From: an uncultured Candidatus Peribacteria bacterium
Lineage (GTDB): Bacteria > Patescibacteriota > Gracilibacteria > Peribacterales > Peribacteraceae
Length of the DNA: 64,000 nucleotides
Direction: 5' to 3'
NCBI GenBank assembly: GCA_964611095.1
Contig: CAZSWJ010000001.1
Location: 31,735-95,734 of the forward strand
The translations under genes were made by a program, and so were the position numbers. Of this stretch, positions 8,594-52,300 are shown one piece after another (the first letter of the stretch is position 1; each line of letters begins with the position of its first letter). The notes below the pieces were generated by a model, which was not told the origin of the DNA, made no database searches, and was given only the letters and a program-made list of their open reading frames with translations.

Positions 8594-8595
8594 TC

Positions 8596-9327: not shown

Positions 9328-9332
9328 ACTTC

Positions 9333-12124: not shown

Positions 12125-12127
12125 CTC

Positions 12128-22871: not shown

Positions 22872-24047
22872 TTAGGTCACGAACGGGCCCATGTCGCGTT
22901 TGTGTCCTTCGGAGTGCACGAGGTAGTACCGCGGCGGTTCGTAGTGCTGAGCAGCCGTGTGGGGGGCCAAGAATTTGTGCTCGGCTACGTCGCTCCGGAC
23001 AAAGAACGCGTTGTTGCCCGTGATGTCGCAGCCGACGAGCACATAACCCTTGGCTTCGGCGAGTTTCACGAGCGATTCCAATGACGCGCCGTAGTACCGG
23101 GATCCGTTCCAGCGGAAATGCGGGTCGTACGCCACAATCCACTCCATGCCCGGGCGATACACGGCGTTGTATTCGATGCAGACGACGCGCGGCTTGTGCG
23201 TGTCGAGCGCTTTCCACAGCCAGTAGTCGTTGCCGTCCACATCGATGGAGAGGAAGTCGAATTCTTCGGGTACGCCGGCTTTCCGGAGCGTGGATTGCAT
23301 GTTCTCGGCCGTCAGGAACGTCGGCAGCACCGTGAGAGATTTATTGGCAATCTGCGGCGCGAATTTTTCGGCGATCGTTTTGAGGAACGTCGCGTCTTGC
23401 TCCACCCAGCATCCGGTCCATCCTTGCAGGAGCAGTGCGGTCGTGTTGCATTCCAATCCGTCCGAGACCCCGCACTCCACGAATTTTTTATTCGTCGTGC
23501 CGATGCGCGTGAAAATCTCGGCGATGATGCCGTCTTCACCGTTCTGGGAGAACGCTTGATATTCGTGTTTGCCCAGCCACGCGGCGCTCGTGGCGTTTTT
23601 GTGGTTGGCGATCAACTCTTCGCGGCGGCGCACCACGGAAAGCTCAAAAGCACCGCGACGAAGGTCATCCGTCGTGTTTTTGATATCACACAGAAAATCA
23701 TTCATCGTCCGAAGGAGATTCACGTTCCCCCGCATGTCTTGGAGCGCATCGTCCATGGGGTTCAGCTTGTCGCGCATGGGCTTGAGATGCCCGGCGGTGA
23801 CGCGCATGTCTTGGAGCGCATCATCGAGAGGGCCGAGTTTTTCCAGGAGTTTCATCTCCGACATTTGAATGTCGGCGCGCCTGTCATGCTGCAAATCGTC
23901 GGCCTGGATCCGCAGCGCGCGAATTTCACCCTGGAGCATGTTGATCTGCGCCGAGAGCTCATGGACGTGTTCGGCGTACTGCGAGGTACGCTCCACGTTG
24001 CCGGGGAGTGAGAACAGCCGACGGAGGAAGCGGAGCGGCGAGATCAT
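22872..24047 (-). CDS. Coiled-coil protein with C-terminal FkbM-like methyltransferase-type domain
   Basis: From ATG 24047, which forms an ATGA overlap with the upstream stop. Heptad-like N-terminal ~150 aa with a duplicated DDALQDMR. C-terminus has SQNGEDGII..FVECGVSDG..FLSIDVDGNDYW. Confidence 0.6.
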   Translation of the reverse strand: MISPLRFLRRLFSLPGNVERTSQYAEHVHELSAQINMLQGEIRALRIQADDLQHDRRADIQMSEMKLLEKLGPLDDALQDMRVTAGHLKPMRDKLNPMDDALQDMRGNVNLLRTMNDFLCDIKNTTDDLRRGAFELSVVRRREELIANHKNATSAAWLGKHEYQAFSQNGEDGIIAEIFTRIGTTNKKFVECGVSDGLECNTTALLLQGWTGCWVEQDATFLKTIAEKFAPQIANKSLTVLPTFLTAENMQSTLRKAGVPEEFDFLSIDVDGNDYWLWKALDTHKPRVVCIEYNAVYRPGMEWIVAYDPHFRWNGSRYYGASLESLVKLAEAKGYVLVGCDITGNNAFFVRSDVAEHKFLAPHTAAQHYEPPRYYLVHSEGHKRDMGPFVT

Positions 24048-25027
24048 TTGCGGGAGGCGAAGAAGCGGCCTGCGGTGGACTCCGTGGATTCCAAGCGCAC
24101 TTTGTGGGTGTCGGCAAGGATGCGCGGGAGTTCGCGCTTGGCGAGTTCGCCGTGCCACTCGCCGCGGATCATATCGATGTTCTTCAGGAAGCCGAGCGCC
24201 TCGCACTCCCGCAGAATGTTCGTCTCGGCACCCTCGCAATCGAGCTTGAGGAGATCGATGTGCGTGATCTTGTTTTGGCTCAGGAACGCTTCCACCGAGA
24301 GGCCGACGTGGCCTCCTTTCACCGTTTTCTCCTTATGAACGGGGTGTCCGCGGACACCGAGCTCCACCCAGTGCTTGAAGGTTTCCTTGGCGAGTTCCTC
24401 GACGCGCACGTCGTTGTCGGGCTTACCGAAGAATCCGACGAGCGCATGGTTCACGATCGTGACGCCCGGGATGCCGCGGAGATTGTGGTGCAGGTGGTGA
24501 ACGTTGTTCGGGTCGCTGGAGTAATCCGATCGCGGCTCCACGGCGTAGAGCGCGGCATCCGGCCACGACCGTTTGGCCATCATGGAAAACGTTCCCACGT
24601 GCGCGCCGACGTCCACGATCGTTCGCGGCGTGAAGCCGACGGCACGCAGCGCCTCGACGCCGTAGCAATCGCGCTCGATGACCTCGGTGCAAATGTGTTT
24701 GGCGTGCAGCGTTTCCATCCACAGTCGGGGAACCTCTCGTTCTACGCCGAATTTTTCCATCACCGCCGAAAACAGTTCTTCCATCCGCATGCCTTTGTCG
24801 TAGTAGGCATCGCGCGCAAAGGCGTCCATGGCCTCCGGGTCGGCACCGAAGAGCTCGGCTTGATACGCCCAGCGCGCGCTGAGGGCCACCGTTCCGATGC
24901 GCGTTTCCCAGAGCTCGATCTCGAGCACGCCGCTCGGGTCGCTGTCCGAGCGAACGCGCAGATATTTCGGCTTCGTGCCGCGGCGCAGGCCGCGCAGAAC
25001 GCCGGAGAGGAAGGAGGGGGCTTTCAT
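24044..25027 (-). CDS. FkbM-family methyltransferase
   Basis: 327 aa. IVDVGAHVGTFS (SAM motif I) and IDLLKLDCEGAE motifs. Confidence 0.75.
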   Translation of the reverse strand: MKAPSFLSGVLRGLRRGTKPKYLRVRSDSDPSGVLEIELWETRIGTVALSARWAYQAELFGADPEAMDAFARDAYYDKGMRMEELFSAVMEKFGVEREVPRLWMETLHAKHICTEVIERDCYGVEALRAVGFTPRTIVDVGAHVGTFSMMAKRSWPDAALYAVEPRSDYSSDPNNVHHLHHNLRGIPGVTIVNHALVGFFGKPDNDVRVEELAKETFKHWVELGVRGHPVHKEKTVKGGHVGLSVEAFLSQNKITHIDLLKLDCEGAETNILRECEALGFLKNIDMIRGEWHGELAKRELPRILADTHKVRLESTESTAGRFFASRK

Positions 25028-25056
25028 GGAAAGTCAGCGTATCACAGGCCGTGCCC

Positions 25057-27972
25057 TCATTTGAGGCGGGAAGCGAAGAATAATCCGAGTCCGTCGCCCG
25101 TGGGCACCATCTCGAGGCCGTGACTGTTCCTCAGGAGCTCTTCCACCGTGCGGCGCGATACCGCTCCGTGCCACTCTCCGACAATCGTCCCGATATCGGC
25201 GAGCATGCCCATGGCGTGCAGCTCCCGAAGAATGTTGATTTCCGCGCCTTCACAGTCCAGCTTCAGGAGATCGATCCTCGTCAGTTTTTTGTCGCGCACC
25301 AGCGTCGCGACGTCCGTTGCCGATATCGTCGCCGTGAACTCGGCGCACGCGGGATCTCCTCGGAGTCCGCGTTCCACTTCGTGTGAGAAAGAATCCCGCC
25401 GAAGTTCATCGAGCAGTTCCGCATTCCTTGGGTCATGCAAGAGTCCGATCACCGCGGTCGGTACGATTTCCACGTTCGTTTCCTCGGTATTCGCGCCGAG
25501 CAACGCGCGGTACACGGGTTCCACGGCCACGATGCGGGCATGAGGCCAGAGCGCATGCGCATGGAGCGAGAACGTGCCGATATGTCCGCCGATGTCCACG
25601 ATCGTCGCGGGTGCGGTCGTCAGTCGTCGCAATCGGTAGCAATCTTTATCGATGACCTGCATGCAAATATGTCGTGCGTGAACCATGTGCATCCACTGCG
25701 TGCCGATCGTTTGCGAGAGCCCGAATTTCCTGCCGAGACGTTCGCCGAGGACCGGCTCGCGGAGTCCTTCTTTGTAGTAGAGGCGTCGTGCTTCGGCGTC
25801 CACCGCATCGGGCTCGATGCCGTGCGTCCGTGCGGTGTCCGCCCAGTCGCCGTGGACGAAGAGCGGGCCCATGCTCGTGCGGTATCGCACCATCGGCACG
25901 GGGGACGACCGTTCGGCCTCCGTACGTGCCGGAGTCGTGAAGTGCGGCATGGGCGGCGGGACAAACGGTTGCGCCGTACGCGCCGCATCGGGTTTGAGCG
26001 AGGCAAAGAACGTTCCGCGCGCGTGCGCCGGAGCGATGGAAACCGTGCGGACGTCGTGGGTCGAAGCCAAAAGCGCGGGAATGGATTTGCCCATATCACC
26101 ATGCCACTCGCCGCGTATTTCGCGGATGCGTGCGAGTGCTCCCGTCATCGAAAGTTCTCGCAGAATGTTGGTCTCCGCGCCGTCACAACTGAGCTTCAGA
26201 AGGTCAATGGTCGATTCCCGCGGCAGCAATTCGGAGATCGAAACGGCCCTGAGGCCGCAAGCCTCCGTGTCGCACTGCGTCAGCGGATATTCGCGATATC
26301 CCAATTCCATGGAATGAGGGACGGTGTCTTTCAGCAGCTCGGCGCGGCCGGTCCACTTGGCGTCCCCCGTCACCATTCCGAAGACCGCGACATTGCGGAT
26401 GTCGGCGTCGGCGACGTTTTGCCGCAGCACGGCGATGTCGCCCGAATCGTTCTTATCGGGAGCGCAGGGTTCCGCCGCAATGATGCGTGCGTCCGGCCAG
26501 AGATGACGCGCAAAGAGCGAGAATGCGCCGACGTGGGCCCCCACATCCACGATGATCTTCGGCATGAATCCGTTTTCCTTCAGCGAGCGCAGGCCGTACG
26601 CGTCCTGCTCGATGACGTTGCCGCACACGTGCTCGGCATGGAGCGTGAGGAGCCACAGTCGGACGAGATCGCGGTGTTCCTCGCCGACGTTGTTGCACGC
26701 GGCATCCAAGAATGCGTCGCGCCGCAGGTTCCGGGTGTAGTACGCGTACCGCGCCGCATCGTCGATCGTGAGCGGATGAATGCCGCGCGTGCGGGCAAGC
26801 CTCGCCCAGGGCAGACCGATGTGCACCGGCCCCACCGATGTCGGGAATTCCTCCGTATCCATCGGTGCTTCCGCAGTGCTCTCACCTCGCAGCGGCAGGC
26901 GCAGCGACCAGTACGGCCCGCTGCCGCAGTGACGTTTGTACTGCTCCTCGAACATCCGCTTGCCGTGCTCGTAGAGCGTCATATCGGCCTTCAGGTACTC
27001 CGCCACCGTTTCGTACTCCGCGTGCGTGAGTTGCGACTTGGCGTTCGTGCTCCCCGTGACGTCACCGACCACGCTTCCCCGGCGCGGCACGATGCCTTCG
27101 TTCGTCATCAGCTCGTCTTTCCAATCGTACTTGCGGCACAGAAGTTCCATCGATCGATCGAAGTGCTCTTGGAGCAGCACGGCATCGAATGTCTTCAGAT
27201 TCCGTACCGCTTGCGCAAGCAGTCGATGCAATCTCGAGTGAAAGACGTATCCGCCCGGGTGTGCGTAGCCCGCGATCATCTGCACGTACGATTGTTCGAG
27301 CGTCAGCTTCAGGCGGAAGAACGGGTGGTGCAAAAATTGCGTGATGCTCAGCGTCCGTGCGACCGCGGCTTCTTCGGCTTCGCGCGGCGACGCCGTGGGG
27401 TTCTCGCGCCGCACGTAGCGGTAGTACGAGAGCAGGCGGTCCACGGGGTGCCGAAGCATCGTGATGTACGCGTGCGGACTCCGCAGGAGTTCGTGAATGC
27501 CGTAGATGGAGTGGTCGGCGAGCGCGTCGTAACGGTCCCATTTGTCGCGCTCCGCTTCCTTCTGCGCGGGAGAGAGTTCGCGGAAGCGGCTCAGGACGAA
27601 CATGGGGCTTTCGTTCGGCATGCCCACGAAATCGCGTCGAAAACCGATGCTGCGCAGATTGCGTCGCATGACGTGCGTCAGCGTCGACCCCGCCGTGCGC
27701 TGGAGGTGGAGAAAAATGATTTTTTTCTCGGGAGTCGCGGCTTCGGGGTTGCCGTTGTCGTACACATGTTTGTACGCCAGGAGCATGTTCGTATCGAACT
27801 CGGGATGCTCTCGGAGGAGTGCTTCCGCATCACCCGTTTCCGGGATCGTTCCGTACATCTGGAGCAGCTGCCGCTCGTGATCATGCGCCGTCGTCTTCAC
27901 CGAGCCGAACCACTCTTCGTAGTACGGAAAATCCTTCGGCACGCGCCAACGCTTGAAGAACGAAGTCAGCAC
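25057..27972 (-). CDS. Fusion protein: N-terminal sulfotransferase domain plus two FkbM-type methyltransferase modules
   Basis: 971 aa. IIFLHLQRTAGST (5'-PSB-like loop) and MLRHPVDRLLSYYRY (3'-PB-like). Then IIVDVGAHVGAFS...LLKLSCDGAE and TIVDIGGHIGTFS...LLKLDCEGAE. Confidence 0.7.
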   Translation of the reverse strand: MLTSFFKRWRVPKDFPYYEEWFGSVKTTAHDHERQLLQMYGTIPETGDAEALLREHPEFDTNMLLAYKHVYDNGNPEAATPEKKIIFLHLQRTAGSTLTHVMRRNLRSIGFRRDFVGMPNESPMFVLSRFRELSPAQKEAERDKWDRYDALADHSIYGIHELLRSPHAYITMLRHPVDRLLSYYRYVRRENPTASPREAEEAAVARTLSITQFLHHPFFRLKLTLEQSYVQMIAGYAHPGGYVFHSRLHRLLAQAVRNLKTFDAVLLQEHFDRSMELLCRKYDWKDELMTNEGIVPRRGSVVGDVTGSTNAKSQLTHAEYETVAEYLKADMTLYEHGKRMFEEQYKRHCGSGPYWSLRLPLRGESTAEAPMDTEEFPTSVGPVHIGLPWARLARTRGIHPLTIDDAARYAYYTRNLRRDAFLDAACNNVGEEHRDLVRLWLLTLHAEHVCGNVIEQDAYGLRSLKENGFMPKIIVDVGAHVGAFSLFARHLWPDARIIAAEPCAPDKNDSGDIAVLRQNVADADIRNVAVFGMVTGDAKWTGRAELLKDTVPHSMELGYREYPLTQCDTEACGLRAVSISELLPRESTIDLLKLSCDGAETNILRELSMTGALARIREIRGEWHGDMGKSIPALLASTHDVRTVSIAPAHARGTFFASLKPDAARTAQPFVPPPMPHFTTPARTEAERSSPVPMVRYRTSMGPLFVHGDWADTARTHGIEPDAVDAEARRLYYKEGLREPVLGERLGRKFGLSQTIGTQWMHMVHARHICMQVIDKDCYRLRRLTTAPATIVDIGGHIGTFSLHAHALWPHARIVAVEPVYRALLGANTEETNVEIVPTAVIGLLHDPRNAELLDELRRDSFSHEVERGLRGDPACAEFTATISATDVATLVRDKKLTRIDLLKLDCEGAEINILRELHAMGMLADIGTIVGEWHGAVSRRTVEELLRNSHGLEMVPTGDGLGLFFASRLK

Positions 27973-27978
27973 GCCGAT

Positions 27979-29829
27979 TTATCGGAAAGTGGCACAGGGG
28001 AGCACTGTACCAGTTTTTTTGACCGTTTGCTCCGACGTTTCCGGCCGCGGATCTTCCAGGATCCACAGCGTCCAGCGCTCGATTCTGGTGATGCTGATGA
28101 GGCGGGAGCGCTCCCATTTTGCCATGACGTGCGGGTAGGCAGCGATGCTGTTGTCGATCACCTTGGCACGCTCCAGGAGTCCTTTCACATCCGTCGGTGC
28201 CGGATCGCGCATGTGCAAGTGAGGATGGACGATGATGGCGTAGCGATGGGAACACAGGGCCGTCTTGCTGTAGGCCGGATACGCATCCTTGCTGTCGTAC
28301 GGGGCGAAGACGATGCGTTCATCGAGCAGGAAATCGAACGCGAACGAGTTCCAGAAATTTCCGTACACGGCTTCCACTTTTTCGTTCGTCAGATAACGCT
28401 CGAGCCCCGCGAGTTGCACCGTGTTGAAATCGGCGCCGCGGCCCCACACCAGGTAGGCATTGTGGATGTTTTGGTACGAGAGGAACGTGATGTAGAGGCT
28501 CAGCATCGCAATGCCGATCCACTTTTTCCTTCTGATGACCGCATAAAACGCGTACGCCAGCATGGCCATGGCGGGCAGCCACGAGATGATGAGCTGGCGC
28601 ACCTGGCCGTACGAGTTTTCATCGTTCAACGTGCCGAGGAGCGCGATGACGAACATCCAAAACGTCAGGATGCAGAATGCGGGCACGCGGTCTTCTGTCC
28701 GAAGCGGACGAAAAAGGACGAGTCTCACGCACGTCTCGCGATGTTTCCACAGGAAAAATCCGAGGCTGAAGACGATCCATGCCATCACCAGCACCCAAGA
28801 GAGCTTGAGGGCAAGAGGAAGCGGTCCGAATGTCTTGCTGAGCGGCACGGGGATGATGCCGAACAGGAGCGGGAAGACCGTCGAGAGAAGTCCCTTCACC
28901 GATGGCCACGTCGGCCACAGGAACAGCAGTCTCTGGTTCACGGAAATGCCGAAGAAAATTTTTGCAACGAGCTGCGGCGAATTTCCGAGGAGTGCGCCGA
29001 TGCCGAAGACGGCACCGTGCGTCAGCAGTTTTTTCTTGCGCACGCTCAGGAAAAAGAACAGCGCCGCGAGTGCCAGAGTTGCGACGCGCGACGCGGACTT
29101 CGCCTGCAGATGCCATGCCGGGAAATGTCCCGGGAACAAGCTGACCGCAAAACCGAGCAGCGCGATCAGAAGAAGTGCTTTGAGAAGGATGGGCCATCCG
29201 CGTTTCTGCATCGCGTGATGCCAGTCCTCGCTTCCGAGCAGCCACAAGCCCGCCATCACGGCCACGGAAAGCAGAAACGACGGGTGCGTCCACACGCCGA
29301 TTCCGAGCAGAAGCCCGCCGATGAGTGCCTGCAGCAGCTTCCTGTCTTCCGATGTCGGCCGCAGCATCCACACCGCGAAAACGCCGTACGTGCAGAGTGC
29401 GCGGACGGCGAAGTTCGCACTCGGTTGCACCGTGAAGTTCATGAGCAGCCACCCGGGAGCGGCGGCAAGAAGCAGCGTGATGACGGTCGTCCGACGCCCC
29501 CAATGCTTTTCGAGGATCCAGGCGAAGATTCCGAAGATCGGAATGAAGAGAAGTAGTGACGTCGCCCGAAGCGCCATGACGCTGCTGGTCCCGAAGATCC
29601 GAAGCAGCGGAGCTGAAAGAATCGTGATGAGCGACCCGCTGTACTGCTCGCCGTAGATGTAGACGGGCCACACCTTGCCGACCGCGATGTGCTTCGTCAT
29701 GAGCCCGAAGATGGCTTGGTCGCTCTCGAAGTTCAGGAGGGAGTAGGCGCCGATCCACAGCTGCGGCAGCATCGCCACAAGAATCAGGAAGCCGTACAGA
29801 AGCGCGGTGCGTTTGGTGGGGAGCGTCAT
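27979..29829 (-). CDS. Polytopic membrane glycosyltransferase, GT39/ArnT/PMT-like (GT-C)
   Basis: 616 aa with more than 10 predicted TM helices. N-terminal FESDQAIFGLMTKHI...YIYGEQYSGSL loop. Paralogous to 30958..32700. Confidence 0.6.
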   Translation of the reverse strand: MTLPTKRTALLYGFLILVAMLPQLWIGAYSLLNFESDQAIFGLMTKHIAVGKVWPVYIYGEQYSGSLITILSAPLLRIFGTSSVMALRATSLLLFIPIFGIFAWILEKHWGRRTTVITLLLAAAPGWLLMNFTVQPSANFAVRALCTYGVFAVWMLRPTSEDRKLLQALIGGLLLGIGVWTHPSFLLSVAVMAGLWLLGSEDWHHAMQKRGWPILLKALLLIALLGFAVSLFPGHFPAWHLQAKSASRVATLALAALFFFLSVRKKKLLTHGAVFGIGALLGNSPQLVAKIFFGISVNQRLLFLWPTWPSVKGLLSTVFPLLFGIIPVPLSKTFGPLPLALKLSWVLVMAWIVFSLGFFLWKHRETCVRLVLFRPLRTEDRVPAFCILTFWMFVIALLGTLNDENSYGQVRQLIISWLPAMAMLAYAFYAVIRRKKWIGIAMLSLYITFLSYQNIHNAYLVWGRGADFNTVQLAGLERYLTNEKVEAVYGNFWNSFAFDFLLDERIVFAPYDSKDAYPAYSKTALCSHRYAIIVHPHLHMRDPAPTDVKGLLERAKVIDNSIAAYPHVMAKWERSRLISITRIERWTLWILEDPRPETSEQTVKKTGTVLPCATFR

Positions 29830-30947
29830 GCCGTTGCGGCGGAAGTCATGTCATACGGTGCACGGACAAGGTCCCACGTCGTTCGTTCCAAGTACGGGCG
29901 TGCGTCGGTTCCGGGCATTCCTCGCTCCGCGATGGCCTGCGACAACGCGTCCACGTCGCCGAAGGGCACGACGCGGAGCAAGTCGCGAATATCGCTCACC
30001 ATCGCATGATCGGCCGCAATGACGGGTCTGCCCGCCGCGAGCACCTGGCGGATGGAGCCGCTGGTGCTGATGGCGCCCGGAGGCGCGCAGTACCACACGT
30101 TCACGTCGCATTTGGAAAGCTCGCTGATGACGGTCTCGAGCGGCAAGTGCGACGTATCGAGTTCGATCCAGTCGCATCGCTCCGCCCGTTCGATGACGCG
30201 TCTCGCGTAGTCACGCTGTTTGTCGATGTGCGCGGTGCTCGCGAAGATGTGCAGTTTCACATTCGGAATTTTTTCGCAGGCGTCGATGAGTTCCAGCACG
30301 CACTTGTGCGCCTTGAGGAATCCGAAGCATCCCACGTGCAGCCGTCCGTCGCGGACGGAGTGGAGTGTCGGAGCCACTGCGGAAAGCCTCGCTCCGTGGG
30401 GGACCACGGCCACGCGCTTCGCGCCCATCGCGACGAGTGCCTCTTGTGCCGCTTCGCAGTGCACCACGAGCAAATCCGCCGAGCGAGCCAAGAATTCCTG
30501 CGTGCCGCGGAATCGGAAAAAGGAACCCAGGTCGTAGTCGGGCAAATCCTTCGTCCAGACCTGCGGGCTCGTGCGGCAATGATCGTTCACTTTTCTCTCC
30601 CATACTTTCGGTTGCATCTTCCGCGCCATGAAGGCGCGCGCGTAACTGCGGACGGTGGGGAGTTCTACCACCGAGTGCATCGTGACGCACATGCGGATGT
30701 CGTGCTCGTCACAGTACCGACGGATTCTGCGCAGCTCGCCCAAGTCCATGATGCCGAATTCATGCTGCACGTGCAGGTGCGTCGGTCGCAAACCCCGCTC
30801 GTCCAATTCGTTGAGCGAACGCACCGTCTGCATGTTCTGTGCATGCGCCAGCATCTCGGTGTACGTGGCGATGCCGCACGCGCGGCCGAGGCTGCTGCAG
30901 TACTGAACGATCATCGAGGGCTTCTCGGAGGTCATCGGCGCGAGCAT
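29826..30947 (-). CDS. Glycosyltransferase family 1/4 (GT-B)
   Basis: 373 aa. GIATYT motif near the N-terminus. ATGA overlap with the downstream gene. Confidence 0.65.
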   Translation of the reverse strand: MLAPMTSEKPSMIVQYCSSLGRACGIATYTEMLAHAQNMQTVRSLNELDERGLRPTHLHVQHEFGIMDLGELRRIRRYCDEHDIRMCVTMHSVVELPTVRSYARAFMARKMQPKVWERKVNDHCRTSPQVWTKDLPDYDLGSFFRFRGTQEFLARSADLLVVHCEAAQEALVAMGAKRVAVVPHGARLSAVAPTLHSVRDGRLHVGCFGFLKAHKCVLELIDACEKIPNVKLHIFASTAHIDKQRDYARRVIERAERCDWIELDTSHLPLETVISELSKCDVNVWYCAPPGAISTSGSIRQVLAAGRPVIAADHAMVSDIRDLLRVVPFGDVDALSQAIAERGMPGTDARPYLERTTWDLVRAPYDMTSAATA

Positions 30948-30957
30948 AGCAGGCGTT

Positions 30958-32700
30958 TCAGTCCTTCACGATCCACACGTCCCATTGGCCGATTTGCTCC
31001 CGGGAGACCACGGTCTGTGTCCGCAGCCGCGGCAGGATCACCGACCACGAAAACCGGAGCTCTATTTCATCGGCCAGCGCCTGCGTGGAGGTGACGTTCT
31101 TGGGGATCCTCACGTACGCCGGTCCGAGGACGTAGGCATGGGTCGAGGCGGCATCGAGCTCGTCGTTGTAGGGCTTGTAGTACGCGTTGCCGCTGTAGGG
31201 CGTGAGGCGCAGCCGTTCTTGCGTCACGAAGTCGAGCACGAAGGCGTACCAAAATTCGGCGTAGCCGTGCGTCACGTTCTTGCGTTCCAGATACCGCGCC
31301 AACTCTTCCGTTTCGGCGACGGGGAATCGTTCGAAGTTCCAGGCGGCGTGCGTGTAGCGGAGATTGAAGTAGCCGAAGTGCACGAGCCACACCGCCAGTA
31401 CGGCGATGCACGCGATGCGCCACTTCTTCCACAGCGTCGCAAAGAGCAATCCCGTCATGATCGCGAAGGCCTGCCACGCCGGCGCCAGATATCGCACGAT
31501 TCCCTCGCCTGCAGCGGGAAGCGCAAGGATGGCGAGCCACGACATGGCAAAGAGCATCAGAAAGAGGAGTGGGTAGACGTCATTTTTTTCGAGTCGTTCC
31601 ATGCGCAGGACGCGCGCGATCTCTTGTCGATATCGATGACAACAGTGAATGATCGCGACGATGGCGATGCACGCGATGATGCCGCCCAGAACCATCTGCT
31701 TCACCGCCCCCTGTTCCACCAGAATCGGCCACGACCGAACGCCCAAGAATGCCTCGGGCACGTACTTCAATATTTCCTGCACGATGTACCAGTTCGGCAT
31801 CTGCGGATAGAACGCGGGGCTCGGGACCATGCCGAACATCGTCCAGCCGATCCACATCGGCAACGTGCCGAGTGCGATGCCGAGGACGAGTGCCGCGGTG
31901 CCGTACGACAGCGCTTTCTTTCTCGTGCTTACGGCGAAGCATGCGCCGGCGAACAGAGCGCCGGTCAGCACGATCCATCGCGCATTCCCCGTCCACAGCA
32001 GAAGCGGAGCCGTGAGCGCGAATGTGCAAAAGAGCGCGGTGCAAACGATGTCGATTCGTATCTTTTTCCCGAGCGCATGCCGCAACCTCCCCCATTCCTC
32101 CGAGCTCAAGAGCACGAGAGTGCCGAGTGCCGTCGGATACATGAGCGACAGAGGCTGCGTCCAAAGACTCAGCCCGATGAACAGGCCCATGAGGAGCAGG
32201 GTCCGCCACTGCCTTGCCGGGCTCTTTGGAAAATGTTGGTACAACAGGAGTACGCCCATCCAGAGCACCAGATACACGTGCCATCGGCAGCTGAATCGCG
32301 CAATGAATGCGTGGAAAGAAAAGCCCGGGAGAATCAGGAAGAGCAGGCTGAGGAGCGTCGCGTTTTTTCCGAAGACGCGTTCGCAGAACACGATGTGCAA
32401 AACGTAGAACGCGAGCATTCCCGCAAGAACCGAGAGCCGAATGGCGATGGCATTCACGCCGAAGATCGCCAGGAACGGCACCGCAAGAATCGATGGCAAG
32501 CTGCCGCCGTAGTTCACGCCGTAGAAGTAGATCGGGAAATCCGTGCCCTCCAGCATGTGCTTGGCCATGAGCGACGTGATTCCTTCATCGCCGTCGAAGT
32601 TCGCGGGCCACACCGACATCGTCCACGCGTGCAGTCCGACCGCGATTGCGAGCGGCAACACGTAGGGCAACCATCGGCGGATATTGGCGCGGTACAACAC
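30958..32700 (-). CDS. Polytopic membrane glycosyltransferase, GT39/ArnT/PMT-like (second paralog)
   Basis: GTG 32700 is 9 nt after the wzt stop. NFDGDEGITSLMAKHM...YFYGVNYGGSL loop parallels the paralog. The upstream part of the 800-aa ORF overlaps wzt and is Arg/His-rich junk. Confidence 0.6.
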   Translation of the reverse strand: MLYRANIRRWLPYVLPLAIAVGLHAWTMSVWPANFDGDEGITSLMAKHMLEGTDFPIYFYGVNYGGSLPSILAVPFLAIFGVNAIAIRLSVLAGMLAFYVLHIVFCERVFGKNATLLSLLFLILPGFSFHAFIARFSCRWHVYLVLWMGVLLLYQHFPKSPARQWRTLLLMGLFIGLSLWTQPLSLMYPTALGTLVLLSSEEWGRLRHALGKKIRIDIVCTALFCTFALTAPLLLWTGNARWIVLTGALFAGACFAVSTRKKALSYGTAALVLGIALGTLPMWIGWTMFGMVPSPAFYPQMPNWYIVQEILKYVPEAFLGVRSWPILVEQGAVKQMVLGGIIACIAIVAIIHCCHRYRQEIARVLRMERLEKNDVYPLLFLMLFAMSWLAILALPAAGEGIVRYLAPAWQAFAIMTGLLFATLWKKWRIACIAVLAVWLVHFGYFNLRYTHAAWNFERFPVAETEELARYLERKNVTHGYAEFWYAFVLDFVTQERLRLTPYSGNAYYKPYNDELDAASTHAYVLGPAYVRIPKNVTSTQALADEIELRFSWSVILPRLRTQTVVSREQIGQWDVWIVKD

Positions 32701-32708
32701 TGCCGTGA

Positions 32709-33518
32709 CTATACAGCAGCAGCCGCGGCCTTCGGTGTTTGCAGTGCCTCCATGTCGCGCACGTACTGCCCCACCACATCGTTCGTATCGCCGTACGCGG
32801 CCACGCTTCCCTCCTGCAGGTACAGGCAGTGCGTGCTGAGCCTGCGGATGTGGCCCATGCTGTGGCTCACGAAGAGCGCGGTCTGGCCTTGGCTCACGAG
32901 TGACGAAATTTTGGCGAGACACTTGGTGCAGAACGCGATGTCGCCCGCGGCAAGCGCTTCGTCGATGACGAGGATGTCTTTGCAGTCCAGGTGCGCGGCG
33001 ATGGAAAAAGCGAGACGCGCACGCATGCCCGACGAATAAAATTTCACCGGCATGTCGATGGCGTCGCGGATTTCGGAGAAGTCGATGATCTCCTCGGCTT
33101 TCTCCGCGATGCCTTTCGTCTGCATTCCGAGAAGCGAGCCGCTGAGCGCGATGTTCTCGCGGCCCGTCAGCTCCTGATGCATGCCGACGCCCATGCCGAG
33201 GTACGAGCCGATGGATCCCATGAGCCGCACCGAGCCGCTCGTGGGTGCGGTGAGCCTGGAGATGATCTTGAGCAGCGTGCTCTTCCCCGCGCCGTTCCTG
33301 CCGATGATGCCGAGCACTTCGCCCCTGCGCAGCGAGAAGTTCACGTCCTTGAGCGCCCAAAAATCACGACGCTCGGATTCTTTTGCGGGAGCGATGCCGA
33401 AGCGTCGCAAAAAAACGTTCTCCATGATTCCTTTGAGCGAGGCATGAGCTTCGCCGACGCCGCCCGTGCGGCTGTATTTTTTCGAGAGGCCGTCGACGGA
33501 GAGAACCAAGTCTTGCAT
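32709..33518 (-). CDS. Polysaccharide/teichoic-type ABC exporter ATP-binding protein (Wzt/TagH-like)
   Basis: 269 aa. Walker A GRNGAGKST, signature YSSGMRARLAF, Walker B ILVIDE. No C-terminal carbohydrate-binding extension. Confidence 0.85.
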   Translation of the reverse strand: MQDLVLSVDGLSKKYSRTGGVGEAHASLKGIMENVFLRRFGIAPAKESERRDFWALKDVNFSLRRGEVLGIIGRNGAGKSTLLKIISRLTAPTSGSVRLMGSIGSYLGMGVGMHQELTGRENIALSGSLLGMQTKGIAEKAEEIIDFSEIRDAIDMPVKFYSSGMRARLAFSIAAHLDCKDILVIDEALAAGDIAFCTKCLAKISSLVSQGQTALFVSHSMGHIRRLSTHCLYLQEGSVAAYGDTNDVVGQYVRDMEALQTPKAAAAAV

Positions 33519-34348
33519 CAGATGATGTCCAGCACTCTACCTTCCATGCGCCGGAAAAAAAGAAATCCCGTGACAAAAATCAGGAGCGAAAGTCCGCTTC
33601 CCAGAAGAAGTCCGTTCCACGGCAGCGGCAGCCCGGGCAGAAGCGCGGTTCGGAAGAGCTCCACGGCAGACGTGAGCGGATTCAGCCACAGTGCCGTCTG
33701 CAGCGTCGGCGACAGCGAACTGAGCGGATACACCACGGGCGTCAGAAACAAGCTCAGGCGCAAAAAATACGGCACGATGAGCCCCACGTCGCGGTAGAGC
33801 GCATGCAGAATGGAGAGCCACAGCGATACTCCCGCAGCAGCGATGAGCAGGAGCAAGCACACGAGCGGGAGCAGCAAGATGCGTTCGGTGATCGGCGTTC
33901 CCGTCGCGAGCAAGAGGAAGAGGAGCAAGACGAGAGAAATCCCGAGATCGATCATCTTCGCGAGAGCGTTTGCGATCGGGAGCAAGAAGCGCGGGAAGTA
34001 GATGCGCTTCACGATGTCCGCGTGCGCCACGAGCGTTTGCGTTCCGCTCTGGACCGTCACGGACATGTACGTCCAGGGCAGGAGCCCCGCGTAGGCGAAG
34101 AGCGCGTACGGTGCGCCCGCGATGACCTTGTCGAAGAAGTGCCCGAACACCACCGTGAACACGAGCATTTCGAGCATCGGCTGCAGCATGACCCACAGAA
34201 ATCCGATGAACGTCTGCTTGTAGCGGACGCGCACGTCTTTCCAGATGAAGAACGAAAAAAGACCACGGGCTTTCCACGCTTCGGCGACGGGCGGAATCCA
34301 CCACGTGTCCGTGGGTCCGATGACGAGTTCCTGGGTGCCCGGAGACAT
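33518..34348 (-). CDS. ABC-2 type exporter permease (Wzm/TagG-like)
   Basis: From ATG 34348. WKDVRVRYKQTFIGFLWVMLQP ABC-2 N-terminal motif and 6 TM helices. Its stop overlaps the wzt start (TGATG). Confidence 0.8.
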   Translation of the reverse strand: MSPGTQELVIGPTDTWWIPPVAEAWKARGLFSFFIWKDVRVRYKQTFIGFLWVMLQPMLEMLVFTVVFGHFFDKVIAGAPYALFAYAGLLPWTYMSVTVQSGTQTLVAHADIVKRIYFPRFLLPIANALAKMIDLGISLVLLLFLLLATGTPITERILLLPLVCLLLLIAAAGVSLWLSILHALYRDVGLIVPYFLRLSLFLTPVVYPLSSLSPTLQTALWLNPLTSAVELFRTALLPGLPLPWNGLLLGSGLSLLIFVTGFLFFRRMEGRVLDII

Positions 34349-34386
34349 GTGGAGAGCGTACAACCTGCGGGGCGAGTGTGAAATAG

Positions 34387-34414
34387 TTGTCAAAGTGCTC
34401 GGGAGCGATACGAT
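34387..34414 (+). promoter_or_regulatory. Sigma70-like promoter TTGTCA-N16-TACGAT
   Basis: The -10 ends 6 nt before GTG 34421, so the transcript may be leaderless. It lies in a 72-nt divergent region. Confidence 0.4.
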
Positions 34415-34420
34415 GGCGCC

Positions 34421-34762
34421 GTGAAGACCGGAGTGTTCGTCGGCCGATTCCAACCGTTCCACGACGGGCACAAGCGGTGCGTGGAGCACATTCTGGAGAA
34501 CAACGATCGCTGCCTCATCCTGCTCCGCGACACCGAGATTTCGGAGAAAAATCCGTTCGACGTGGAGAAGCGCAAGGCTCTCATCCGCGCGCAATTTCCG
34601 GATTCGTCCCGCATCGACATTCAAACCGTCAAAGACGAAGGCGCAGATCTCACCGTCTACATCGGCCGCGACGTCGGGTACAAGCTCATTCAGCTCGATG
34701 CCGCGACCGAGGCCATTTCGGCCACGGACATTCGCAAAAAGCTCTACGCGCAGAAAGCATGA
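34421..34762 (+). CDS. Minimal HxGH nucleotidyltransferase (cytidylyltransferase superfamily)
   Basis: 113 aa. GRFQPFHDGH (HxGH motif) and ISATDIRKKL (ISxTxxR motif). ATGA overlap with cysC. Confidence 0.7.
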   Translation: MKTGVFVGRFQPFHDGHKRCVEHILENNDRCLILLRDTEISEKNPFDVEKRKALIRAQFPDSSRIDIQTVKDEGADLTVYIGRDVGYKLIQLDAATEAISATDIRKKLYAQKA

Positions 34763-35292
34763 CGCGCCGATTTCCCATCGTCTGGCTCACGGGCAACACC
34801 GGTGCGGGCAAAACCACGCTCGCCACGGGTCTTGAGTCGTACGTGAACGAAGAGTTGTCCCCTTCCGAAGCGCACGCTCGCCGCCTCGTCGTGCTCGACG
34901 GCGACGACATGCGCGCCAGCATTTCCACGGACGCAACGCTCACGCCCGACGATCGCAGGAAACACAACTTGCGCGTCGCTCGTCTCGCCAAGCATTTTCA
35001 AACGCGCGGATTCCTCGTCGTCGTGGCGGTCATCGCTCCGTTCGTCGCGGTCCGCGAGGAAATCGACAAAATTTGCGCACCGCTCTGGATTCACGTGAAA
35101 CGGTCGGGCCTCGGCGGACCGGATAAGCCCTATGAAGCCCCGCTCTCCCCCGCCCACGTCATCGACCACGACACGCTCGGCATCGAAGAAGCGCAGCAGT
35201 CGCTCCGATCATTCCTGCGCGGAGCCCTGACCGCCGCGACCTTCAAGCCCAAAGTCACTCGCGCCCACACTCGCCCTACGGCTACTATTTAA
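34759..35292 (+). CDS. cysC: Adenylylsulfate (APS) kinase
   Basis: From ATG 34759. P-loop LTGNTGAGKTT and LDGDDMR motif. Size is typical of CysC. Confidence 0.8.
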   Translation: MTRRFPIVWLTGNTGAGKTTLATGLESYVNEELSPSEAHARRLVVLDGDDMRASISTDATLTPDDRRKHNLRVARLAKHFQTRGFLVVVAVIAPFVAVREEIDKICAPLWIHVKRSGLGGPDKPYEAPLSPAHVIDHDTLGIEEAQQSLRSFLRGALTAATFKPKVTRAHTRPTATI

Positions 35293-35382: not shown

Positions 35383-35616
35383 TCAGACTTTCATCCACGT
35401 CAGTTCGCCCAAGCCGCCGTCTTCGCCGACGGGAAGCGCGATGCCGTACATGCCGCCCTTGTCGATGATCATGAATCCGTACGTGCGTTCGTCGTGCATG
35501 AAGCACTCGTCGAACAGAATCTCCGGTTCTTCGGCGCCACGGATGTGTTCCAGCGCGTACCGCAGGATCGGCTCCTTGTACTTTTCGGCCATTGCTTTGG
35601 GTGAGAGGAGTTCCAT
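35383..35616 (-). CDS. Small acidic protein (77 aa), last gene of the calpain-like operon
   Basis: ATG 35616 is 7 nt after the upstream stop. Begins MELLSPKAMAEKYKEPILRY. No recognised family. Confidence 0.5.
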   Translation of the reverse strand: MELLSPKAMAEKYKEPILRYALEHIRGAEEPEILFDECFMHDERTYGFMIIDKGGMYGIALPVGEDGGLGELTWMKV

Positions 35617-35623
35617 ACGTGAG

Positions 35624-39413: not shown

Positions 39414-39419
39414 CGTTGA

Positions 39420-39776
39420 TTACGATTGGGTCATTTGTTTTTCGATCTTTTTCATCTCGTCCGCTTCGGCCGAGCTCACCAGTTCTTCGGCCATCTTCGC
39501 GGAGTCGCGCTTGTAGCCGGCGAACATTTCGTCCCACTCGCGTTTGTACTCGGTGAGGCGTTTGTCGAATTCGGCGAAGGCCGCGGCGTAGCGCTTCACA
39601 CGGACTTTGCGCTGCTCCACGGTTTCGTTCTTCGTGAGCGCACCGACCTTCGGCAAATTCTTGTTCGTGAGTTCGGGTTCGATGCCCTCCATGAGGAAGT
39701 CATAGAGCTCATCGCCGTCCAAGATGGGCGGCGGAGCGAGATAGTCCTCTGTCTGTACCGTCGTGTCAGAAGGCAT
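39420..39776 (-). CDS. Hypothetical protein (118 aa), first gene of the operon
   Basis: ATG 39776 lies downstream of an extended -10. There is a 6-nt gap to the next gene. Confidence 0.6.
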   Translation of the reverse strand: MPSDTTVQTEDYLAPPPILDGDELYDFLMEGIEPELTNKNLPKVGALTKNETVEQRKVRVKRYAAAFAEFDKRLTEYKREWDEMFAGYKRDSAKMAEELVSSAEADEMKKIEKQMTQS

Positions 39777-49574: not shown

Positions 49575-50357
49575 ATGTCATCTCTTCCCCATTTTTCTAT
49601 GGTGTATACACGCTCCACGGTCGCTCTGGCCCTTCCGGTCTGCGCACTGCTTCTCTGGATGTCAGCCGAAGCCGCTTTCGCCTACTTCCCGGACGACATG
49701 CCGCGCGGCACAACCGCGTCGTCCATGTCATCGTCTTCTTCCTCCGTCGCTCCGCAGCAGCAACAGGCCACGCCGTTCTCGGTTCGTCCCTTCACGGACG
49801 TTCCCGTCGGCAGCGTCCACTACGACGCCATCGAGTATCTCCGCACGCACAACATCCTCAAGGGTGATTACACGAACGGAGAGTTCAACCCCGAAAAGCG
49901 CATTCGTCGCGACGAACTCGTCCAGCTCATGACGAGCGAGTTCCTCATGCCCGACCGCGACAACTCTTGTCTCAACAGGAACGGTACGGGCGCCACGATC
50001 TTCAAAGACGTGACGAACGACACCAAGTTCGCACTCGACATCTGCAACGCCAAGGCCGCCGGCATCATCCACGGTTACCCCGATGGGTACTTCCGCCCCA
50101 CGCGCGCCGTGAGCTTCGTCGAGGCCGCCAAGCTCGTCACGCGCATCTTCCAGACGAGCATGGACCGCCAGGATACGACTGATTCGCGTTGGTACTTCCT
50201 GTACGTCAACGCGCTCTCCGAGCGCAACGGCATCCCCATGAGCATCCGCTTCATGGCGCAGCCGGTCACCCGCGGCGAAATCGCCGAAATGGTGTACCGC
50301 GCCAAAACGGACAATCATACCCTGCCGTCCAAGCATTGGAACGATCTGGCTCGTTAA
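49575..50357 (+). CDS. SLH-domain surface protein
   Basis: 260 aa with a signal peptide and a Ser tract [12 protein letters not shown]-like [17 protein letters not shown] and [26 protein letters not shown]. Confidence 0.7.
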
Positions 50358-52226: not shown

Positions 52227-52300
52227 AGTTCATCTCCTTCAACATAAGCCTGTGATGCCAAGCCCCTTGCGGGGAACTCCACGATGTAGAGTCAAATAGT

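Follow-up and report, generated by a model that had tools for sequence, protein, structure and literature searches.

What is made by the eight co-directional minus-strand ORFs that fill positions 22872-34348 of the 64,000-nucleotide stretch of DNA analysed here (the window)? We argue that they are probably a conserved cell-envelope glycan locus of the Peribacteria (CPR) that works by an ABC-transporter-dependent route (Table 1). A preliminary description of this DNA had reported eight minus-strand genes with overlaps or gaps of at most 29 nt. The measured junctions are -1, 8, 10, -4, 6, 29 and -4 nt, and a separate gene call on the identical ENA contig agrees, with the same eight products (276, 269, 580, 373, 616, 971, 327 and 391 aa). 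The downstream bound of the block is a convergent gene that ends at 22865. Scans for promoter and terminator consensus sequences gave scores no higher than the shuffled expectation, so operon status is argued from packing and conservation only. One sigma-70-like site lies in the divergent intergenic region (34387-34414, plus strand) and is not above chance.

Comparative genomics had been suggested as a check on the locus. The gene block is found again in 4 other genomes at 41-82% protein identity; its ORFs are therefore conserved together and did not fall in a row by chance. All of the relatives are MAGs whose submitters' record titles label them Candidatus Peribacteria (CPR), and gene order at the locus is kept in them. 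The core common to the 5 genomes is GT-C, Wzm, Wzt, the GT-B enzyme, a sulfotransferase and at least two FkbM methyltransferases. The number of methyltransferases per locus differs between genomes, from 2 to 4, and the L009 and L005 version has no stand-alone FkbM. L010 has an extra DegT aminotransferase and, transcribed divergently from its GT-C gene, a GT2 of 253 aa. A small GT2 beside a GT-C gene is the usual partner arrangement for GT-C enzymes that depend on polyprenyl-phosphate sugars. The GC content of the window (~59%) and its SLH/S-layer genes both agree with Ca. Peribacter riflensis, which has 58.5% GC, a 1.25 Mb genome and a heavy envelope investment (PMC4736985). The host is a CPR bacterium and presumably has a single membrane, so the O-antigen frame does not apply.

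Table 1. Features of the glycan locus and its neighbours, in window coordinates.
Feature	Position	Strand	Evidence
Stalked protein, 391 aa: conserved basic/hydrophobic N-terminus, helical stalk, class I SAM-methyltransferase-fold domain (aa ~155-391)	22872..24047	-	AF2 + Foldseek
Stand-alone FkbM methyltransferase, 327 aa	24044..25027	-	PF05050 E 5.5e-9, TIGR01444 51.6 bits, both above cut-off
Three-module soluble enzyme, 971 aa	25057..27972	-	PF06990, PF03567, PF05050, all above cut-off
FkbM methyltransferase 2 of fusion, aa ~683-971	25060-25926	-	TIGR01444
FkbM methyltransferase 1 of fusion, aa ~360-660	~25993-26895	-	TIGR01444
Carbohydrate-type sulfotransferase module of fusion, aa ~60-350	~26923-27795	-	PF06990 35.9 bits, PF03567 35.2 bits
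GT-C-fold polytopic membrane glycosyltransferase B, 616 aa, paralogue of A	27979..29829	-	BLASTP + alignment to A and orthologues
Soluble GT-B (GT4-like) glycosyltransferase, 373 aa	29826..30947	-	Glyco_trans_1_4 21 bits, below cut-off 27
GT-C-fold polytopic membrane glycosyltransferase A, 580 aa	30958..32700	-	AF2 model + Foldseek
Wzt/TagH-like ABC ATPase, 269 aa, nucleotide-binding domain only	32709..33518	-	PF00005 (ABC_tran) E 1.5e-19
Wzm/TagG-like ABC-2 permease, 276 aa	33518..34348	-	PF01061 E 3.8e-14, 53 bits vs cut-off 26.9
Divergent intergenic region, 72 nt	34349..34420	.	Between glycan operon and PAPS pair; upstream bound
Minimal HIGH-motif nucleotidyltransferase, 113 aa (GRFQPFHDGH ... 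ISATDIRKKL)	34421..34762	+	PF01467 34 bits, above cut-off
APS (adenylyl-sulfate) kinase, 177 aa	34759..35292	+	PF01583 74 bits vs cut-off 21
Secreted SLH-domain protein, 559 aa, Ser linker ~30 residues	39876..41555	+	PF00395 E 1.2e-17

The exporter is a Wzm-like ABC-2 permease and a Wzt-like ATPase, as had been proposed. The permease has at least 4 hydrophobic segments, and its NCBIfam matches (galactan Wzm, a mycobacterial model and the best, and KpsM) are sub-threshold. For the ATPase, TagH (9e-58) and galactan Wzt (4e-50) come first in NCBIfam, and every match stays under its equivalog cut-off. The DrrA and DrrB models are among the lower matches. The start codon of the ATPase gene shares 1 nt with the permease stop codon. 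The Wzt had been called short and without a cap-binding domain, and at its length there is no room for a C-terminal carbohydrate-binding domain.

The two membrane transferases were thought to be GT39-like paralogues. The paralogy stands (25% identity between A and B). GT39 was ruled out, with no match to PMT, PMT_2 or MIR in any of the 12 family members, even at E<=1. Both proteins are polytopic, B with ~10 hydrophobic segments, and neither has a match by sequence in Pfam, NCBIfam or the PDB. The AF2 model of A, built from an input alignment of 12 sequences, is of moderate confidence (pLDDT 69, pTM 0.74), and this counts against the pathway proposed below. Its best 20 Foldseek matches in the PDB are all GT-C enzymes, led by AglB (1.8e-6) and ArnT (3e-6), then PglB, STT3, Pmt4, ALG9/12, DPY19, AftA and EmbA. 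Asp38 of A is invariant within the first-loop motif NF(D/E)SD(E/Q/K), and B shares this loop-1 Asp. The model supports a GT-C fold for the two proteins.

The remaining glycosyltransferase had been named a GT4. It is GT-B and GT4-like: a match to Glyco_trans_1_4 is found in all 5 orthologues (best E 9.5e-7) and one to Glyco_transf_4 in 2 of them. However, the window protein is itself sub-threshold, and the alignment has an invariant SxSGSxxQ in place of the EX7E motif. No TM segment was detected in it. That the locus has one cytoplasmic glycosyltransferase only, sub-threshold for GT4 and without EX7E, also counts against the pathway.

None of the modifying enzymes has hydrophobic segments. The fusion of a sulfotransferase to two methyltransferases was described correctly, with both sulfotransferase families above cut-off and TIGR01444 matching in two stretches (99 bits). 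Across homologues, neither of the PAPS motifs, LHLQRTAGST and TMLRHPVDRLLSYY, varies, and both align to HS6ST3 (PDB 5t03). The fusion is rare: a search space of 5.8 billion yielded 6 clusters. The stand-alone FkbM likewise keeps its assignment, and it is ~40% identical to each FkbM module of the fusion. In L010 and P0006 the GT-B enzyme is fused to a sulfotransferase. Because of these two Rosetta-stone fusions we argue that glycosyl transfer, sulfation and methylation share one substrate.

Four FkbM modules had been counted, the fourth in a coiled-coil methyltransferase-like protein. Three are supported by HMMs, but the fourth has no Pfam match and is a methyltransferase by fold only. Its AF2 model (pLDDT 86.6) has helices at 18-70 and 96-147 and then a Rossmann domain at pLDDT >95: a two-helix stalk followed by a class I SAM-methyltransferase fold. 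Foldseek gave 318 PDB matches at E<=1e-3, and all 50 among the matches listed are SAM-dependent methyltransferases. When aligned to the FkbM modules with hhalign, the SAM-binding motif and the DxxxxDxEG motif are paired, weakly. The stalk differs in length among orthologues, which are 389 to ~455 aa. Stand-alone relatives of the domain lie outside glycan loci, another point against the pathway.

The sulfation prediction is strengthened since PAPS supply is encoded next to the glycan locus, by a pair of genes that overlap by 4 nt and are transcribed divergently from the operon. The APS kinase scores 76 bits with TIGR00455, under the equivalog cut-off of 138.7. It adjoins the locus in 4 genomes and is kept beside it in L007, L008 and L009. 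Its partner, the small nucleotidyltransferase, is 75-90% identical in relatives where other locus proteins are 50-60% identical. The pairing is widespread across metagenomes, as neighbours in either order and also as fusions, often near sulfotransferases. The PAPS synthases PAPSS, Sat-CysC and CysNC similarly link or fuse an APS kinase to an HxxH-motif nucleotidyltransferase-fold partner, and canonical ATP sulfurylase also depends on such a motif, HNGH (PMC11697783). Unlike in those enzymes, the partner here is only 113 aa, is NadM/NMNAT-like (over residues 4-70 only), and cannot be linked to Sat or CysD by sequence. We consider it a candidate non-canonical ATP sulfurylase (sulfate adenylyltransferase).

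Given the observed gene content, families or folds, conservation and fusions, we infer the step order, lipid carrier, sugar, modified positions and acceptor of the following pathway. A priming enzyme encoded outside the locus would start a lipid-linked glycan at the cytoplasmic side of the membrane, and the single soluble GT-B enzyme would extend it. While still cytoplasmic, the glycan would receive O-sulfate from the HS6ST/Gal3ST-like sulfotransferase and O-methyl groups from three FkbM modules, with PAPS supplied by the APS kinase and its partner. The stalked domain may work at a set distance from the membrane, like a WbdD-style terminator. The TagGH-like pair would then carry the modified glycan across the membrane, where the two outer-face GT-C enzymes would either decorate it with sugars from polyprenyl-phosphate donors or attach it to the final acceptor. 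As evidence against this pathway, the window yielded no priming phosphoglycosyltransferase, no nucleotide-sugar synthesis genes and no polyprenyl-phosphate sugar synthase.

The alternative that survives best, though we think it unlikely, is that the methyltransferases and the sulfotransferase modify only the non-reducing terminal residue, which would stop growth and license export. This is the role of the E. coli O9a kinase-methyltransferase WbdD, which has its catalytic part on a stalk. By analogy WbdD-type capping is plausible for the eighth protein, since its joining of a methyltransferase-fold domain to a long, length-variable helical stalk would follow the same design logic. One sulfate and three methyls would fill a single terminal hexose, and a weak V_cholerae_RfbT match brings to mind the 2-O-methyl group that caps the chain end in serotype Ogawa of V. 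cholerae O1. The O9a system (WbdA/B/C, WbdD, Wzm/Wzt) also resembles the predicted pathway in that GT-B mannosyltransferase-like enzymes assemble the glycan in the cytoplasm, export is of the Wzm/Wzt type, the glycan undergoes SAM-dependent methylation, and a modifying enzyme is borne on a coiled coil. However, the Wzt here has no cap-binding domain, WbdD did not come up by sequence in PDB searches, a kinase domain is missing, and the stalk is N-terminal where that of WbdD is C-terminal. The locus adds sulfation, three further FkbM modules and two GT-C enzymes, in a host presumably without an outer membrane or lipid A. Four methyltransferase modules and a sulfotransferase exceed the needs of any known cap, and a methyltransferase number that varies across genomes fits decoration better than a checkpoint.

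Slightly less likely is protein O-glycosylation. A short methylated and sulfated lipid-carried oligosaccharide would be flipped by the ABC transporter, and GT-C would move it, en bloc or sugar-wise, to the poly-Ser linkers of SLH proteins, in a manner resembling archaeal AglB-dependent S-layer glycosylation or actinobacterial PMT mannosylation. Two oligosaccharyltransferases, AglB and PglB, are the best structural matches, followed by ArnT and Pmt4, and a locus with one cytoplasmic glycosyltransferase is in keeping with a short glycan. A Ser run of ~30 residues occurs in the secreted SLH protein 5.5 kb from the locus, a second SLH protein bears SSMSSSSSS, and in L005 the SLH orthologue adjoins the locus and keeps a linker of ~35 residues. 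The 559-aa protein is a possible acceptor or partner by association only: 4 unrelated genes lie between, and the link is one of proximity. By inspection of the GT-C alignment the WWDYG motif of STT3/AglB/PglB is absent, there is neither a MIR domain nor a PMT match, and to our knowledge bacterial O-oligosaccharyltransferases are of the PglL/Wzy_C type, not GT-C. S-layer glycan pathways do share lipid-linked assembly and pre-export methylation with the locus (Geobacillus stearothermophilus slg with its 2-O-methyl cap; haloarchaeal Agl/AglB with methylated and sulfated N-glycans), as well as ABC export in Geobacillus, GT-C transfer in archaea, and SLH/S-layer genes nearby. Halobacterium has an S-layer protein bearing a sulfated, methylated glycan.

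We doubt still more that the product is a lipoglycan or glycolipid of the mycobacterial PIM/LM/LAM or sulfoglycolipid kind, with GT-B glycosylating a membrane lipid, the ABC pair flipping it and GT-C extending it outside from polyprenyl-phosphate sugars. The GT4-like and GT-C set is reminiscent of PimA/B together with the Mpt and Aft enzymes, the structural matches include AftA and EmbA, and the best permease match is mycobacterial. However, those model matches are all far under equivalog cut-offs, and no acyltransferase or lipid-synthesis gene lies within or beside the locus. It is very improbable that the locus serves to tailor a small molecule (a natural product) with FkbM-type O-methylation and sulfation and to export it: FkbM was originally described from FK506 biosynthesis and ABC-2 exporters such as DrrAB export drugs, but there are no PKS, NRPS or scaffold genes, the locus has two GT-C enzymes and a GT-B enzyme, the sulfotransferase falls in carbohydrate families, and the host genome is ~1.25 Mb.

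The cell-envelope glycan locus also has counterparts in single-membrane bacteria. Gram-positive rhamnose-type wall polysaccharides and teichoic acids (streptococcal GacD/E with the GT-C GacL; TagGH; YfhO) share the TagGH/Wzm-Wzt-like exporter and GT-C enzymes that alter the exported polymer from polyprenyl-phosphate sugars, and the L010 GT2 is placed like GacI beside GacL. In contrast, the window has no rhamnose or glycerol-phosphate genes, GT2 or GtrA, the predicted decoration is methyl and sulfate on the cytoplasmic side, and the GT-C family lies outside the named ones. Dedicated sulfotransferases within polysaccharide clusters are known from Synechocystis synechan xss (PMC8205485) and the sulfated capsules of Vibrio sp. 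KMM 8419 and Cobetia marina (PMC11641403, PMC11766843). Those hosts are all Gram-negative or cyanobacterial, at least synechan is Wzx/Wzy-dependent, and none of the clusters has the sulfotransferase-FkbM-FkbM fusion, GT-C enzymes or the window's PAPS module.

In an uncultured, small-genome CPR bacterium, the locus is predicted to make a sugar chain, add methyl and sulfate groups to it and export it to the cell surface. This compact gene set is about 1% of a tiny Peribacteria genome, and the 113-aa nucleotidyltransferase beside it may represent an unrecognised kind of sulfate-activating enzyme.

The eight co-directional open reading frames of the glycan operon lie on one strand, and independent gene calls on an identical ENA metagenome contig give proteins of 276, 269, 580, 373, 616, 971, 327 and 391 aa. 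The junctions between them measure -1, 8, 10, -4, 6, 29 and -4 nt, so the tight packing claimed in the preliminary description is borne out. Scans for sigma-70 promoters and intrinsic terminators did not rise above shuffled expectation, and so the argument for a single unit is one of packing and conservation. An Rfam search returned tRNAs only. The nearby minus-strand genes for proteins of 77, 539, 728 and 118 aa were rejected as further members because a tRNA and genes of the plus strand lie between them and the operon. The 539-aa protein of this group has a weak match to calpain-type cysteine proteases (PF00648, E 0.0014; NVGNCYL...HNHAY) and the 728-aa protein is highly charged and rich in coiled-coil. 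All four lack both a signal peptide and a clear family.

Coordinates and gene content of the features discussed
Sequence	Coordinates	Strand	Feature	Remarks
Window	5552-13768	+	five large genes in a row	1013, 243, 318, 612 and 546 aa; upstream of dnaE
Window	end at 22865		convergent gene	downstream boundary of operon
Window	22872-34348	-	glycan operon	eight genes
Window	24044-27972		FkbM modules	alignment A6
Window	34349-34420		divergent intergenic region	72 nt; upstream boundary of operon
Window	34421-34762	+	113-aa nucleotidyltransferase	CTP_transf_like above cut-off
Window	34759-35292	+	APS kinase	PF01583 74 bits (cut-off 21.1)
Window	35383-39776	-	four genes	very strong AT skew (-0.38)
Window	39876-41555	+	secreted SLH-domain protein	Ser run of ~30 residues, ~40500-40620
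Window	40572-40618		Ser-coding repeat	flagged by TRF
Window	49575-50357	+	second SLH protein	shorter Ser stretch
Window	52001-54000, 54730-54926		low-GC island	GC 0.42 vs ~0.59; two tandem tRNA-Asp(GTC) genes beside it
Window	52437-53477		DKNYY-domain gene	in low-GC island
L005	347-1993		SLH orthologue beside the locus	poly-Ser run kept, ~30-35 Ser
L010	11589-14192		GT-B enzyme fused to a second sulfotransferase domain (P0006)	Glyco_trans_1_4 + Sulfotransfer_2
L032	1011-2024		ORF after the PAPS pair	likeness to the next three by position and size only
L036	1212-2228		pyruvate-kinase-barrel gene	
L037	1722-2729		pyruvate-kinase-barrel gene	
L045	2969-3964		pyruvate-kinase-barrel gene	
L007			related glycan locus	all eight genes, as in window
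L009/L005			related glycan locus	one GT-C; stand-alone FkbM absent; extra GT1
L008			related glycan locus	two GT-C genes, both of the 580-aa type
L010			related glycan locus	GT-C, Wzm, Wzt, sulfotransferase, two FkbM, GT-B-sulfotransferase fusion; also DegT aminotransferase, two class I methyltransferases, GT1, and a 253-aa GT2 divergent to the GT-C gene

A grouping of the ABC pair with non-glycan exporters would speak against a glycan locus; the pair groups with exporters of glycans and teichoic acids (TagH, galactan Wzt and Wzm, KpsM). The permease reaches 53.1 bits with ABC2_membrane (PF01061), for which the cut-off is 26.9, and its best NCBIfam matches, galactan Wzm and KpsM, are below their equivalog cut-offs. 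The ATPase matches ABC_tran in Pfam. Its top NCBIfam models are TagH (196 and 176 bits) and galactan Wzt (170 bits), followed by DrrA at 115 bits. All of these are below the equivalog cut-offs, so the assignment holds at the level of the family only. At 269 aa the Wzt is a nucleotide-binding domain only. This leaves no room for a cap-binding C-terminal domain, as had been supposed. No priming phosphoglycosyltransferase (WecA, TagO or WbaP) turned up among the genes called across the window or in their Pfam matches. The genome may encode one outside the window.

The 580-aa and 616-aa membrane proteins are paralogues (25% identical), and structure prediction was the sole approach that resolved them. 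Neither has a match in Pfam, NCBIfam or the PDB sequences, a PDB profile search included. An AlphaFold2 model of the 580-aa protein (pLDDT 69, pTM 0.74) was compared with the PDB by Foldseek. The top 20 matches are all GT-C enzymes (E 1.8e-6 to 5e-2, TM 0.28-0.51), led by AglB (1.8e-6) and ArnT (3e-6) and continuing with PglB, STT3, Pmt4, ALG9/12, DPY19, AftA and EmbA. Unrelated transporters appear only from E>0.05. The catalytic acid of GT-C enzymes is located in the first loop. Here the first extracytoplasmic loop has an invariant Asp38 within NF(D/E)SD(E/Q/K), the next residue being E, Q or K. Our conclusion from the predicted structure is that both proteins should be GT-C enzymes of a family without assignment. 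They had been labelled GT39-like, and this has to be given up. No Pfam model, PMT, PMT_2 and MIR included, matches at E<=1 in 12 family members, ten of them distant relatives, and GT39 membership is thus rejected. An STT3-type oligosaccharyltransferase is rejected as well, because the WWDYG motif is absent by inspection from the family alignment (A2), in which the sole conserved Trp motif is (E/N/D)(F/Y)W.

Gal-3-O_sulfotr, Sulfotransfer_2 and Methyltransf_21 are all above the Pfam cut-off in the 971-aa protein. Its sulfotransferase domain scores 35.2 bits with PF03567 (cut-off 22) and 35.9 bits with PF06990 (cut-off 27). The PAPS-binding motifs (5'-PSB and 3'-PB), LHLQRTAGST and TMLRHPVDRLLSYY, are the same in every homologue, and both align to those of heparan-sulfate 6-O-sulfotransferase 3 (HS6ST3, PDB 5t03). 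TIGR01444, the FkbM model, matches two stretches of the same protein with 99 bits. The 327-aa protein is an FkbM methyltransferase too (TIGR01444, 51.6 bits) and shares about 40% identity with either module of the fusion. The HMM searches therefore uphold both the sulfotransferase-methyltransferase-methyltransferase fusion and the FkbM assignments. The preliminary description counted four FkbM modules: three are above cut-off and conserve the SAM motif VD(V/I)G(A/G)H(V/I)G, while the fourth, the stalked domain, has no FkbM match. The fusion is rare, with six clusters among 5.8 billion in a search that sees only relatives sharing exact words. The modifying enzymes are all free of hydrophobic segments, which implies from sequence that methylation and sulfation should occur in the cytoplasm, ahead of export. 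At its N-terminus each of the three FkbM modules is also extended by about 110 conserved aa (W..A...G..P...D..AR..YY..LR), a stretch that the two FkbM genes of the distant locus L010 do not have.

The GT4 label of the 373-aa soluble protein needs qualifying. The protein itself scores 21 bits with Glyco_trans_1_4, below the cut-off of 27. All five GT-B orthologues match this model (best E 9.5e-7), two match Glyco_transf_4, and the GT-B fusion of L010 reaches 27.7 bits with Glyco_trans_1_4. The EX7E position, located by eye from the canonical motif, is replaced by an invariant SxSGSxxQ in 5/5 orthologues. PDB sequence and profile searches gave noise or coiled-coil matches only. The family matches of the orthologues suggest a GT-B enzyme that is GT4-like.

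The 391-aa protein has no family match in Pfam or NCBIfam, and it too gave only noise or coiled-coil matches in PDB sequence and profile searches. A model built from 52 sequences (pLDDT 86.6) has helices at 18-70 and 96-147 followed by a Rossmann domain with pLDDT >95. Foldseek returned 318 PDB matches at E<=1e-3, and the 50 listed are all SAM-dependent methyltransferases. The head thus has a class I SAM-methyltransferase fold, and there is no kinase domain. Conservation among orthologues covers the catalytic domain as well as the N-terminal 20 residues (MISPLRFLRRLFxLPGN), and the stalk varies so that total length runs from 389 to ~455 aa. Its C-terminal 237 aa place it in a very large family, with at least 2,904 proteins. 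The members are about 280 aa long, 50-58% identical across Omnitrophota, Bacteroidota, Planctomycetota, Proteobacteria and Acidobacteriota, and almost all unannotated. PF05050 is recorded for two of the 120 homologues listed (proteins P0018-P0137). The genomic context of two stand-alone homologues was inspected and neither is in a glycan locus. We do not call the stalked protein an FkbM member, since hhalign aligned the right motifs to the FkbM modules with a probability of 8.8%.

Capping of the WbdD kind had been put forward for this locus. The likeness is that the stalked methyltransferase is predicted to carry its catalytic head on long helices, perhaps a coiled-coil, whose length varies. 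The difference is that the locus lacks WbdD homology (no WbdD chain is among the PDB sequence and profile hits at E<=10), a kinase and a cap reader on Wzt. Given these differences, a ruler or terminator role is kept as a hypothesis for the 391-aa protein, by analogy, and for no other protein of the locus.

Four related loci turned up when genomes were scanned, one for each species. Three are in MAGs labelled 'uncultured Candidatus Peribacteria bacterium' (81, 54 and 50% identity) and the fourth MAG is at 41%. NCBI places Peribacteria within Peregrinibacteriota, among the candidate phyla. In the three Peribacteria genomes the locus is at the same site, beside aspS, nrdR and dnaE. The five large genes of the window that precede dnaE have no Pfam match on record. 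A core of GT-C, Wzm, Wzt, the GT-B enzyme, a sulfotransferase and at least two FkbM is conserved. The sulfotransferase-FkbM-FkbM and GT-B-sulfotransferase fusions join three activities, and we argue from them that glycosyl transfer, sulfation and methylation probably act on one substrate. The window has a GC content of ~59%, matching that of Ca. Peribacter riflensis (58.5% GC, genome of 1.25 Mb), which is described as committing heavily to cell envelope synthesis and as having S-layer genes (PMC4736985). The locus and PAPS pair together take up ~12.4 kb, or roughly 1% of a ~1.25 Mb genome. The low-GC island elsewhere in the window adjoins two tandem tRNA-Asp(GTC) genes and may have been horizontally acquired.

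The two genes of the PAPS pair overlap, are divergent from the operon and are followed by a tRNA-Leu. The APS kinase has the P-loop and LDGD (as LDGDDMR), its lid region is shortened, and it scores 76 bits with TIGR00455 against an equivalog cut-off of 138.7. The other member is the 113-aa protein, which has the nucleotidyltransferase motifs GRFQPFHDGH and ISATDIRKKL, with HDGH as its HxxH. It resembles NadM (NMN adenylyltransferase) over residues 4-70 only and is ~55 residues shorter. No Sat or CysDN family match was found for it; only CTP_transf_like and NMNAT models match. In relatives it is 75-90% identical, compared with 50-60% for the other locus proteins.

Its association with APS kinase recurs across metagenomes. 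A metagenome scan gave 80 loci, and 29 of these have the short type, which is 110-138 aa in length and aligns end to end. In 23 of the 29 an APS-kinase-like ORF accompanies it: directly downstream in 12 (L015-L025, L058), 1.2 kb downstream in L027, directly upstream in six (L028, L032, L034, L036, L037, L045) and fused in frame in four (L029, L030, L031, L033). No such ORF adjoins or is fused to any of the ~51 longer types (NMNAT or NadM-Nudix); two show only a marginal match ~3 kb off. An exhaustive phmmer search of 1.84 billion representatives found 1,495 relatives, 112 of them at E<=1e-10. Among the best 150 of the 1,495 (proteins P0138-P0287), 58 are longer than 230 aa and 44 of these 58 include an APS-kinase-like domain, in either order. 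A Pfam check of ten long proteins found APS_kinase in nine, eight of which also have CTP_transf_like (up to E 4e-53).

The pair's neighbours elsewhere include sulfotransferases (L036, L037 and weakly L016), a Capsule_synth protein, GT4, UDP-glucose dehydrogenase, polysaccharide deacetylase and an NKWYS capsule protein. The window's type of sulfotransferase was not found in the 80 metagenome loci when these were searched with HMMs of the locus proteins; Pfam showed other sulfotransferase families there. It must be noted that a gene for a pyruvate-kinase barrel only (~335 aa) comes directly after the pair in L036 and L045, and beyond a 2OG-oxygenase gene in L037. Just past it, in L036 and L037, comes a sulfotransferase gene in convergent orientation (in L032 by position only). 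The window does not have this barrel gene.

No canonical ATP sulfurylase was seen in the flanks of the pair in the metagenome loci. ATP sulfurylase is often fused to APS kinase. The canonical enzyme also relies on an HxxH motif (PMC11697783). Since the short nucleotidyltransferase has both traits in common with it, we infer that the short protein is a candidate sulfate adenylyltransferase, as far as sequence and gene neighbourhood can tell. The alternative of a TagD-like CDP-glycerol enzyme is rejected: a TagF-like gene is absent, and the protein is much more strongly linked to APS kinase.

Starting from the established gene content, folds, fusions and conservation, we propose the following route as the best supported. 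A lipid-linked glycan would be assembled by the GT-B enzyme in the cytoplasm and would be sulfated and methylated there. It would then be exported through Wzm/Wzt and processed on the outer face by the GT-C enzymes. We infer the lipid carrier, the sugar, the modified positions, the order of the steps and the acceptor. One rival is S-layer protein O-glycosylation. The SLH proteins of the window are, from proximity alone, possible acceptors or partners of the glycan, and their poly-Ser linkers are possible O-glycosylation sites. An SLH orthologue with its poly-Ser run lies beside the locus in the 54%-identity relative. A cap-only model and a lipoglycan pathway are the other rival readings. Taken as a whole, the claim is that a self-contained locus lets a CPR bacterium with a ~1.25 Mb genome produce a surface glycan that is sulfated and poly-O-methylated, with PAPS supplied through an unrecognised, minimal 113-aa sulfate adenylyltransferase of a NadM-like type that many lineages have linked or fused to APS kinase. 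We put it forward tentatively and find it somewhat easier to doubt than to believe.

Each part of this system has precedents. ABC-dependent glycan export and methyl caps are known, as is the decoration of exported polymers by GT-C enzymes in Gram-positives and mycobacteria. Sulfotransferases occur in bacterial polysaccharide clusters, as for synechan (PMC8205485), and in marine capsule clusters of Vibrio and Cobetia (PMC11641403, PMC11766843). A literature search on sulfotransferases in Peribacteria or CPR found nothing. What is new is the combination of elements, the sulfotransferase-FkbM-FkbM fusion, the GT-C family without assignment, the CPR host, and a PAPS module with a candidate sulfate-activating enzyme. 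To our knowledge almost nothing is known of the surface chemistry of CPR bacteria, which are thought to be attached to host cells. The conserved locus predicts an anionic, hydrophobically capped glycan, and this is a concrete candidate molecule for the symbiont-host interface. It also offers recombinant targets in the sulfotransferase-FkbM-FkbM enzyme, the GT-C family and the stalked methyltransferase. If the reading of the 113-aa protein is true, it would be a third, convergent class of ATP sulfurylase. A family now annotated as NMN adenylyltransferase-like or cytidylyltransferase-like may then activate sulfate, and many genomes would need to be annotated differently for sulfur assimilation and sulfation capacity.
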